Shown here one piece after another: positions 1 to 1,364 of a DNA stretch of 1,364 nucleotides. How positions within the stretch are numbered: the first letter of the stretch is position 1; every line of letters starts with the position of its first letter. This DNA comes from Escherichia coli (GTDB lineage: Bacteria; Pseudomonadota; Gammaproteobacteria; Enterobacterales; Enterobacteriaceae), in assembly GCF_003334335.1 (NCBI RefSeq), contig NZ_QOWQ01000108.1; one strand, given 5' to 3'. The notes below the pieces were generated by a model. It saw only the letters and a list, made by a program, of their open reading frames with translations, ran no database searches and had not been told where the DNA came from. The position numbers were made by a program, and so were the translations under genes.

Positions 1-1364
1 GTATGCGCCCCGGTGTTATTCGTGGATTTGGTTCCGTAATCAAACGACGATGTGTTTTTCGTCCCCAAATCCGTACTGGATGCGCTGGCGCTGTGGGTGT
101 GCGATTTAATGCCGTCCTGTTCCTGAGACAATACGGCACGACCACTGGCGGGTTTGCCCTTAATCGTCCAGCCACGCATATCAGGGATCACGGCTGACGG
201 ATAAGCGGCTGCAAGTTTCGGGTATGCAGATTTGTCAAAAGTCTGCCCCTGCATCAGGGCATAGCCAGACGGAACGGTATCTGATGGCCACGGGATTGGT
301 GCGCCAGGCGGATAAAACTGCTCTGATGGCGTATAGAGTGAATAAACTGTACCGTCCGTTAACCCTTCCGGCTTATTAGCAGAATATGCTGGTGACGTAT
401 GAATCGTCACGCTGGCATTACTGGTATAATCCCATTGAATATTTACACCAGTCGCATAATTTCCGATTGCAACGTAAATATCGTAAGTATCACCAGATGT
501 ATTGACCCAGGCAAAATTTGTAAACCCTGTCGATGTGCGCTGCCATAAAGCACCAGTAATCCCCTTCGGATTACCATTACCTGCACGCAAAACAAGTTCA
601 GATATACCTGCCTGTTGAGGTGACCCCACGTTAAATCCCGCACCACCAATCAACGTAATTGAAACAACAGAACTCGCCTGTGGCATGGTTACCGTTGCTA
701 ATTTGAACCAACCAGCACCACCGCTGAATGACATTGTTGTTGAGTTAAGCGTACCAATATCTTTCGGCGTCAGTGTTATATCCGCTGAAAGCGCCTTACC
801 ATTCACCTTACGGGCAGAAGGTACCCGACCATTCGCATTATCATTAGCTGCTTTCACTGCTTTCGGTGTCGCGGCAAGCGTTTCAGATGCGCTGTTGGTT
901 GCACTACTGAGCTGGACAATTCCTTTTTGTGCTGTCGTAGCGTCCTGAGCAGTATATTTCCCGTTAGCAAGGTCATAGGCTGCCTTTACCGACTTTGGCG
1001 TTGCCGCCAGCATTTCAGATGTGCTGTTGGTCGCGTTGCTAAGCTGAACTATCCCTTTCTGTGCTGTCGTTGCATCCTGTGCGGTGTATTTCCCGTTAGC
1101 CAGCTCATACGCGGCCTTAACGGCTTTTGGCGTTGCCGCCAGTGACTCGGAAGTGCTGTTAGTCGCACTGCTGAGCTGTACTATCCCCTTTTTCGTCGTG
1201 CTCGCATCCTCAAGCGCCACGGCGGATGCAATATCCTCTGCCCGTTTTGCCGCTGTCTCAGCGCGCGTTGCCGCGGATTCCGCCGTACTTTTGCTCTGAG
1301 CTGCCGCCGTCGCACTGCCAGCTGCCTCTGTCGCCTTCGTGGATGCCGTCGTGGCGCTGCCCTT
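1..1364 (-). CDS. stf: Side tail fiber protein, lambdoid Stf family; internal fragment, incomplete at both ends (N-terminus beyond 1364, C-terminus beyond 1)
   Basis: Seen in sequence: the minus-strand frame with codons 1362-1364 down to 3-5 has no stop in 454 codons (bases 1-2 are a partial Thr codon). Translation begins [102 protein letters not shown]... and ends ...[99 protein letters not shown]. Established knowledge: KGIVQLSxATNS repeats, the NGKALSxDITLT motif, the tail-collar motif and HxH boxes are hallmarks of lambda Stf and related prophage side tail fibers (StfR/StfE-like) and the T4 gp37 distal fiber. Match is from memory, not from a search. Confidence 0.9.
3..104 (-). other. Start of the His-rich distal fiber region: HxH motif SHTHSA (87-104) and the terminal GAH(T) that probably opens a second H-x-H box
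   Basis: Seen in sequence: His codons at 99-101 and 93-95 (minus strand, H-T-H) and at 3-5. Established knowledge: repeated HxH boxes occur in the distal parts of T4 gp37 and lambda Stf, and coordinate metal ions in the gp37 tip structure. Only the first box lies inside the window. Confidence 0.55.
93..311 (-). other. Phage tail-collar-like domain
   Basis: Seen in sequence: [73 protein letters not shown]. Established knowledge: the pattern P-x-G-(W/Y)...(Y/F)P.L......PD(L/M)RG....G....(H-x-H) is the signature of the phage tail collar domain found in T4 gp12 and lambda Stf-like fibers. Assignment is by motif recall. Confidence 0.65.
315..746 (-). other. Gly/Thr/Ser/Asn-rich central domain of the fiber, function unassigned, probably beta-rich
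   Basis: Seen in sequence: translation [145 protein letters not shown]-richer DNA than the flanking stalk and repeat region. Structure is inferred from composition. Confidence 0.5.
753..806 (-). other. Conserved tail-fiber motif [18 protein letters not shown] directly after the repeat array
   Basis: Seen in sequence: aa 187-204 of the fragment. Established knowledge: NGKxLSxxITLTxxDxG-type motifs recur in long and side tail fibers of lambda, P2 and T4-like phages. Confidence 0.6.
846..1190 (-). repeat. Three tandem in-frame coding repeats of about 132 bp (44 aa): copy 1 at 1059-1190, copy 2 at 927-1058, copy 3 (partial, diverging after KAA) at 846-926
   Basis: Seen in sequence: copy 1 [44 protein letters not shown]; copy 2 [44 protein letters not shown]; copy 3 [27 protein letters not shown] then NDNANGR. 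Copies 1 and 2 are about 90% identical in protein but only about 80% in DNA, the differences being mostly synonymous third-position changes. Established knowledge: this resembles the phage tail fiber repeat of Stf-like proteins. Confidence 0.85.
1200..1364 (-). other. Ala/Thr/Ser/Lys/Glu-rich low-complexity segment of the fiber (aa 1-55 of the fragment), probably helical stalk
   Basis: Seen in sequence: translation [55 protein letters not shown]. Locally GC-rich DNA: 41 of 60 bases (about 68%) are G or C at 1261-1320, against about 35-50% in 421-720. A helical or coiled structure is inferred from composition only. Confidence 0.55.

Follow-up and report, generated by a model that had tools for sequence, protein, structure and literature searches.

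A predicted β-sandwich domain in the side tail fibre of a lambdoid Escherichia coli prophage and its exchange among phage tail fibres

The locus and the segment

The window, by which we mean the whole 1364-nucleotide stretch of Escherichia coli DNA that was analysed (contig NZ_QOWQ01000108.1), has a sole long open reading frame (ORF) in minus-strand frame 0 (window:3-1364:-), which is stop-free and gives a 454-residue tail-fibre fragment open at both ends. Within this fragment lies a segment of 144 residues (positions 315-746 in plus-strand coordinates, exactly codons 207-350, reading NSTT...SLYTPSEQF on the minus strand), which an earlier note, made from the letters of the DNA, had described as a stretch of about 144 residues of unassigned function between a repeat array and a collar motif. 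This placement was confirmed by the Pfam matches on either side (Table 1). Judged by the comparisons described below, the segment is a full-length member of a family of tail-fibre β-sandwich domains of the type found at residues 818-953 of T2 gp37, a family that has no database name. A hidden Markov model (HMM) of the family covers window residues 205-348, and relatives without the domain are homologous again from residues 349-354 on; by this alignment the coordinates of the segment agree closely with the true limits of the domain.

The window corresponds to residues 408-861 of the 991-residue protein WP_046464134.1 of E. coli Ecol_AZ155, annotated as 'prophage tail fiber N-terminal domain-containing protein'. 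The segment is real coding sequence, since the same DNA lies inside this annotated tail-fibre gene; the plus-strand ORFs that overlie it (38-87 residues) found no support. The gene order in Ecol_AZ155 is gpJ, Ail/Lom (lom), the 991-residue fibre (stf) and a tail fiber assembly protein (tfa). Because the gene stands in a J-lom-stf-tfa module, and no phage record covers the window (none reaches 80% coverage), we assign it from its context as the gene for the side tail fibre (Stf) of a lambdoid E. coli prophage. The protein has the Stf N-terminal region as well as the Collar domain and HxH needle tip that mark a lambdoid Stf or T4 gp37-type distal fibre: it is 85% identical to lambda orf-401 over residues 1-286 (BLASTP), and its HxH motifs repeat on to residue 991, the C-terminus.

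Identity with the Stf of phage lambda itself was considered and ruled out, as lambda lacks the segment and is not collinear along the fragment. Lambda matches only window residues 1-171, in pieces, and 351-446; in terms of the full protein, the matches to lambda orf-401 and orf-314 span residues 1-499 and 758-991 and leave out the segment. The suggestion that the window is a fragment of lambda Stf was therefore not upheld, a helical SPDALNTLNELAAALGNDP-type stretch occupying the position of the segment in lambda. At least 80% of the window is covered in 1314 of 5426 complete E. coli genomes, and the segment reaches the same coverage in 1291 of them (about a quarter), including O157:H7, O26 and O145 strains. 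Some part of the window is matched in 4083 genomes and the segment in 1412; 1187 of the 1418 matching E. coli records are at least 99% identical to the segment of the window.

The composition of the segment (Gly 12.5%, Thr 12.5%, Ser 11.1%, Asn 6.9%, Tyr 4.9%, Trp 2.8%; Gly, Thr and Ser together 36%) is as the earlier note described it, although richness in Thr and Ser is a property that it has in common with its flanks. It differs from them in its greater content of Gly, Asn and aromatic residues and its much smaller content of Ala, which makes up 24% of window residues 1-206.

Table 1. Features of the window. Nucleotide positions are plus-strand coordinates of the window; residues are numbered along the 454-residue fragment.
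Feature	Position	Strand	Residues	Basis and remarks
End of Ala/Ser/Thr-rich proximal shaft	1203..1364	-	1-54	Translation; GC 65%; homologous to lambda orf-401
Three 44-residue Phage_fiber_2 repeats	816..1202	-	55-183	Pfam PF03406, E 1.5e-19 to 4.6e-19
Upstream joint, variable 5' edge of exchanged cassette	753..815	-	184-204	Breakpoints of JL22 and PhiR26_1
Predicted β-sandwich (jelly-roll-like) tail-fibre shaft domain	321..752	-	205-348	
Conserved loop GGAGFNVG	624..647	-	240-247	Alignment A1; predicted loop between strands 3 and 4
Conserved strand end and loop RAGNGNPKG	561..587	-	260-268	Alignment A1 and secondary-structure mapping
Conserved hairpin	474..503	-	288-297	Alignment A1 and secondary-structure mapping
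Phage tail Collar domain	162..305	-	354-401	Pfam PF07484, E 1.5e-11; directly after the domain
Start of gp37-type needle	3..161	-	402-454	First HxH motif SHTHS; aligned to 2xgf

Domain family and distribution

Homologues were sought by an exhaustive phmmer search with the 144 residues against 1.84 billion cluster representatives (threshold E ≤ 1e-3). The domain was matched in 173 representatives, nearly always over query residues 1-140. A word-indexed homologue search returned nearly only fragments of 250 residues or fewer, and architectures were taken from the exhaustive search of representatives. A tblastn search of phage genomes found the domain in 298 records. The carriers include T2/K3/RB49-type gp37, Felixounavirus fibres, P1-like S fibres, SSU5-like phages, Acinetobacter T4-like phages and lambdoid prophages; on these matches the domain is spread over at least five unrelated phage groups, and the proposal that it might be specific to one lineage was not borne out. 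An alignment of 50 homologous sequences (alignment A1) is marked by the motifs GW.KIATV.MPQ, GG.GFNVG, R.GNG.PKG and NTSGD.YDIY. The family HMM scores 200 bits on the 991-residue protein and 145 bits (E 1e-46) on T2 gp37.

The expectation that the segment carries no named motif proved correct. Pfam gave nothing on window residues 184-353 and no family for the segment in any of the 50 aligned homologues, and NCBIfam gave no match on the whole protein. The best PHROGs for the segment, 3299 and 21552, are both of 'unknown function', and the others are generic 'tail fiber protein' entries. Pfam PF21446 (Gp34_trimer), listed for two homologues, was rejected as a name for the domain because it lies downstream of it (residues 151-194 of P0005). 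No named equivalent was found in the published text on Bas63 or RBPseg.

What follows the domain varies: the collar and needle directly, some 130-230 other residues and then the collar, a Gp34_trimer-like region, or unrelated C-termini. Two proteins have two copies, P0071 (residues 159-297 and 476-614) and P0102 (residues 573-698 and 885-1022). The copies in the Enterobacter protein P0102 have diverged, so this duplication is taken to be real; those of P0071 have identical scores and could be an artefact of assembly or the outcome of recent tandem duplication. In the P0136 cluster, the 'phage tail protein' of the Yersinia pestis complex, the domain is followed by collar and needle; the protein occurs on hundreds of contigs, and plasmid-borne copies, with members annotated as 'lambda hypothetical [Yersinia pestis KIM10+]', are among them. 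Five entries (P0126, P0003, P0054, P0061 and P0069) bear evidently wrong or chimeric names such as 'shikimate transporter', 'terminase small subunit, partial' and 'helix-turn-helix domain-containing protein', and are probably fused ORF calls at contig ends. The tblastn matches also include records named as Campylobacter (two) and Enterococcus (one) phages; these are unexpected hosts, and the records may be mislabelled or contaminated.

Predicted fold

The AlphaFold2 model of the monomer, built with alignment A1, has a mean predicted local distance difference test score (pLDDT) of 93.7 and a predicted template modelling score (pTM) of 0.88. It is all-β, with about ten strands and one short helix, in keeping with the β-rich character anticipated for the segment. 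On this model the segment is a self-contained globular β-sandwich of about 140 residues with a jelly-roll-like arrangement. The earlier idea of a spacer of low-complexity Gly/Ser/Thr sequence is not compatible with such a confidently folded domain. An insertion or flexible spacer rich in Gly, Ser and Thr, specific to one lineage and poorly conserved, would be consistent with the lack of a named motif and with absence from lambda Stf and T4 gp37; set against the confident fold, the spread over at least five unrelated phage groups and a conservation higher than that of any other region compared, we consider it very improbable.

In structural alignments the WceF-type sandwich fold matches over the whole domain at 12-14% identity, and further fold matches are to tailspikes and exopolysaccharide (EPS) depolymerases. 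In the viral structure library the gp37 sequence relatives rank first, followed by EPS depolymerases of Erwinia, Pantoea and Xanthomonas phages. In WceF (Pantoea stewartii, PDB entry 6tgf) the three chains part after a short triple β-helix, each forms an eight-stranded jelly-roll (residues 531-667) and a C-terminal stem follows; the sandwiches are joined by salt bridges in the trimer (PMC7949094). We infer that the aligned part of WceF is residues 531-667, because this is its only all-β domain near the aligned length (138 residues). The in-line topology, in which chains separate, form a sandwich and continue, is that proposed for the domain here, with the difference that the WceF sandwich follows a catalytic β-helix and the present one a fibre repeat shaft. 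Equivalent distal sandwiches occur in phage EPS depolymerases and in Acinetobacter phage tailspikes (PDB entries 6c72, 6e1r, 8oq0 and 5w5p), again with no link at the sequence level. The relation to WceF is at the level of the fold only, as searches of PDB sequences, with the sequence and with a profile, detect no link. For carbohydrate-binding modules and galectin-like lectins, the structural comparison gave no similarity clearly above the generic β-sandwich level.

A pseudo-trimer of three Gly-Ser-linked copies was also modelled. The best AlphaFold2 model has a pTM of 0.77, a value that requires the three domains to be placed in a definite way relative to one another; pLDDT ranges from 41 to 73 over the five models, which were made from an unorthodox linker construct with only 15 sequences.

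Exchange of the domain between fibres

The family HMM finds the domain in the 991-residue Stf, in the Stf of the P1-like JL22 and in T2 gp37 (residues 818-953 of 1341). In lambda (any frame), T4 gp37, PhiR26_1 Stf and Gifsy-1 Stf it finds none, even at E ≤ 100 with the filters off. The earlier note had proposed that the segment could be a separate module, the part of the fragment most likely to differ between homologues, and had named as contrary evidence a segment conserved in all lambda Stf proteins with an assigned structural role. The presence of the segment does vary, and lambda Stf lacks it. Where lambda has its helical stretch, PhiR26_1 has an unrelated module of about 245 residues. A further conserved module stands directly before the collar in PhiR26_1 Stf (about residues 720-786) and Gifsy-1 Stf (about 535-600), with the pattern ..YEVYNNGYP..YGNI..L.G....GE.LIGWSGT.GA.AP..IRS.RDT.DA.WS.WA.LYT; it seems to be yet another alternative filling of the slot before the collar.

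The breakpoints are sharp on the collar side. DNA similarity to lambda, PhiR26_1 and PT109 resumes with the first collar residues, 349-354; upstream, similarity to JL22 begins at residue 202 and similarity to PhiR26_1 ends inside the repeats, at residues 133/177. The domain (321-752) has a GC content of 44.4% and 34.7% at third codon positions (GC3), against 49-65% and 43-62% in the flanks; the GC3 of repeats, collar and needle is 50-62%. This step in composition suggests acquisition from an AT-richer phage lineage. As homology resumes exactly at the collar and GC3 drops relative to the flanks, we regard the segment as an exchanged cassette.

Short conserved joints are found in several relatives, ...DIGTL upstream and ...KPTxxDIGALP downstream. 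The upstream joint of the domain reads VNGxxxxxDIxLxPxxIG in the window protein, JL22 and phi458 and is a shorter ...TIGAV in SJ46; more generally, an xIG(T/A)(L/I/V) joint precedes the domain in several relatives. Downstream, KPTxx(D/E)(I/V)GALP and then xxGG follow the domain or an alternative module in PT109 Stf (about residues 712-722), the phi458 tail protein (about 212-222), the SJ46 tail fibre (about 204-214) and PhiR26_1 Stf (about 683-692). From their sequences these motifs look like conserved linkers at which modules exchange. The window's own protein has no downstream joint, and its domain runs straight into the collar. The joints of engineered lambda Stf chimeras, R393 and S528 (PMC11338833), bracket the same slot.

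In SJ46 (P1-like; locus L009, 2233-4134) and phi458 (locus L008, 2797-6429) the domain-bearing fibre gene lies near a gene for a Pin/Cin-type DNA invertase, which places the domain in the invertible, alternative fibre end of these two phages. IS1 genes are inserted near the fibre gene of phi458. Taken over these comparisons, the domain is best described as a portable cassette exchanged by recombination among unrelated phage groups and bounded by short conserved joints; it would be portable because it folds autonomously.

Selection and conservation

Ratios of nonsynonymous to synonymous substitution rates (dN/dS) were calculated pairwise by the Nei-Gojobori method, in four comparisons for the domain. 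The value against JL22 is 0.02 (98.6% amino-acid identity, dS 0.32) and against PT109 0.10; those against phi458 (0.06) and SJ46 (0.14) are rough, because dS is saturated. The collar gave 0.09-0.15, and the needle and head, which make the receptor contact, 0.30-0.42. The domain is below needle and head in all four comparisons: where present, it is the most constrained region compared and under strong purifying selection. The view that this would be the least predictable and most variable part of the fragment thus holds for its presence or absence and fails for its sequence (dN/dS 0.02-0.14 in the domain versus 0.30-0.42).

In alignment A1, conservation of at least 90% is reached by G240, G241, G243 and N245 in the loop GGAGFNVG, by N263, P266 and G268 in RAGNGNPKG, where R260 is invariant, and by Y294 and Y297 in the hairpin.

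Flanking regions and neighbouring genes

Chains 5yvq and 8ju3 of the Mu S fibre match the repeat region, whose three Phage_fiber_2 units (816-1202, minus strand) are near-identical 44-residue tandem repeats. Copy number differs among relatives, and PhiR26_1 and PT109 align in shifted registers; unequal recombination therefore seems to change the number of repeats and with it the length of the fibre. At the other end of the fragment the receptor-binding tip of T4 gp37 (PDB entry 2xgf) aligns to window residues 337-454 with an E value of 2.3e-52.

In the Ecol_AZ155 prophage a gene for a class I S-adenosylmethionine (SAM)-dependent methyltransferase lies on the opposite strand and overlaps a small ORF just downstream of tfa (locus L003, 8394-9062). 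In Gifsy-1 a gene for a Macro-domain protein lies between stf and tfa (locus L010, 5354-6178). Both look like cargo at the fibre locus.

Proposed role

On the predicted fold and its relatives we lean, with some reserve, towards a structural function: the domain would form a knob or joint, itself trimeric, within the distal shaft of the trimeric side tail fibre and would not be the determinant of receptor specificity. After the Phage_fiber_2 repeat shaft the three chains would part and each would fold its own sandwich; the three sandwiches would pack round the fibre axis as a knob, and the chains would come together again in the collar and in the iron-binding needle, which bears the receptor-binding tip. 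Such a knob could act as a rigid joint or spacer that fixes the distal fibre's length and geometry, and it would probably also be a trimer-stabilising block. The trimeric arrangement and the purely structural role are suggested by the analogy with WceF, by the independence of the domain from the type of tip and from its own position in the fibre, by its absence from T4 gp37 and lambda Stf and by the purifying selection on it relative to the tip. T4 gp37 and lambda Stf have the same kind of collar-and-needle tip and bind OmpC (PMC12617516), and both fibres function although the domain is absent from them.

Several results weigh against a knob of this kind. Neither phmmer with the segment nor hmmsearch with the 50-sequence profile found anything among PDB sequences at E ≤ 10, so there is no solved homologue. 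The pseudo-trimer is weak evidence for the arrangement of the chains, because its five models vary widely and draw on only 15 sequences. Two of the four dN/dS values come from saturated comparisons. Nine of the 13 positions conserved at 90% or more lie in loops and not in core strands; this pattern fits a trimer interface and a conserved ligand site equally well, and binding to an invariant ligand would likewise be in line with the purifying selection.

These last points bear on a possible but rather unlikely alternative, an accessory lectin, in which the domain would form a three-fold carbohydrate-binding module on the side of the fibre, bind a conserved surface glycan (lipopolysaccharide (LPS) core, enterobacterial common antigen or similar) and speed adsorption by reversible attachment that does not depend on the tip. 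Sandwiches of this class often bind sugars. The most conserved positions here cluster in Gly/Asn/Pro loops (GGxGFNxG and RxGNGxPKG) instead of the core strands, and an invariant ligand would account for the strong purifying selection. That side tail fibres can bind sugars is exemplified by Gifsy-1 Stf, which binds Gal II of the LPS core (PMC12312913), but this very fibre lacks the domain. Gifsy-1 Stf was accordingly dropped as an experimental context, the HMM finding no copy in it. The similarity to lectin and carbohydrate-binding folds, moreover, is generic only, and the phages that carry the domain have hosts whose surfaces differ, including Escherichia, Salmonella, Yersinia and Acinetobacter. 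A more specific form of the proposal, which we think doubtful, is that a conserved lectin, in three copies on the fibre flank, binds an invariant enterobacterial surface glycan and so provides a second, tip-independent attachment site common to T2 gp37, Felixounavirus fibres, P1-like S fibres and lambdoid Stf. If true, an exchanged flank lectin would explain both the loop-centred conservation and the very low dN/dS.

The domain might instead serve as an assembly or registration nucleus, whose early trimerization sets the register of the chains for repeats and collar and which possibly offers a docking point for a Tfa-type chaperone. In WceF the sandwiches belong to an intertwined, trimer-stabilising C-terminal part, tfa follows stf in every context examined and the high conservation fits a constraint from assembly. 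Yet there are fibres that have the same collar, needle and Tfa and assemble although they lack the domain (lambda; T4 uses gp38 and gp57A), and the domain lies far from the C-terminus and beside several different C-terminal types, whereas chaperones of the gp37/Tfa class act at the fibre C-terminus. We judge this explanation improbable and a weaker option than the lectin. A structural knob in the shaft is accordingly retained as the working interpretation, and with it the domain falls into an ordinary, familiar class: structural modules that are exchanged between phage tail fibres.

Relation to known systems and significance

Among the closest known counterparts is T2 gp37. Its residues 818-953, like the equivalent parts of K3, RB49 and many Tequatrovirus and Mosigvirus fibres, are a true sequence homologue of the domain (tblastn identities 35-54%) with the shared motifs GW.K.ATV.PQ, GGxGFN, RxGN.PKG and NTSxDxYDxY, and in T2 gp37 as in the fibre here the domain is an unannotated shaft domain of a trimeric fibre. 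The surroundings differ: in T2 gp37 it lies about 390 residues before a C-terminus of a different type and the tip adhesin is a separate protein, gp38, whereas in the present fibre it stands directly next to a collar and needle of the T4 type, and in T4 gp37 itself there is no copy. In the Stf of lambda (Ur-lambda) the positional counterpart is the stretch at about residues 394-528, between the last Phage_fiber_2 repeat and the collar; its flanks are 79-87% identical to the window at the DNA level, and the stretch itself, being of the helical type noted above, is unrelated in sequence to the domain. The same concept, compact structural modules at varied positions in the fibres of unrelated phages, has been described for the mobile pseudo-domains of RBPseg (e.g. 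the 'pyocin knob' D7 and D42; PMC12143355); nothing found places the present domain in one of those named classes, the pyocin knob fold not having been compared.

The module is now delimited to about 140 residues, its joints falling at the last Phage_fiber_2 repeat and at the start of the collar, and myoviruses, P1-like phages and lambdoid prophages are groups between which it moves. Although about one complete E. coli genome in four carries it, no Pfam or NCBIfam model exists for it; a domain model would improve annotation. Because its natural joints coincide with those of the lambda Stf chimeras, it could serve as a spacer part in fibre engineering. Should it prove to bind sugar, the domain would count as an auxiliary adhesin common to the fibres that carry it. 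For now it is a routine case of mosaicism in tail fibres, which are built of exchangeable modules and decide which bacteria a phage or an engineered particle can reach.

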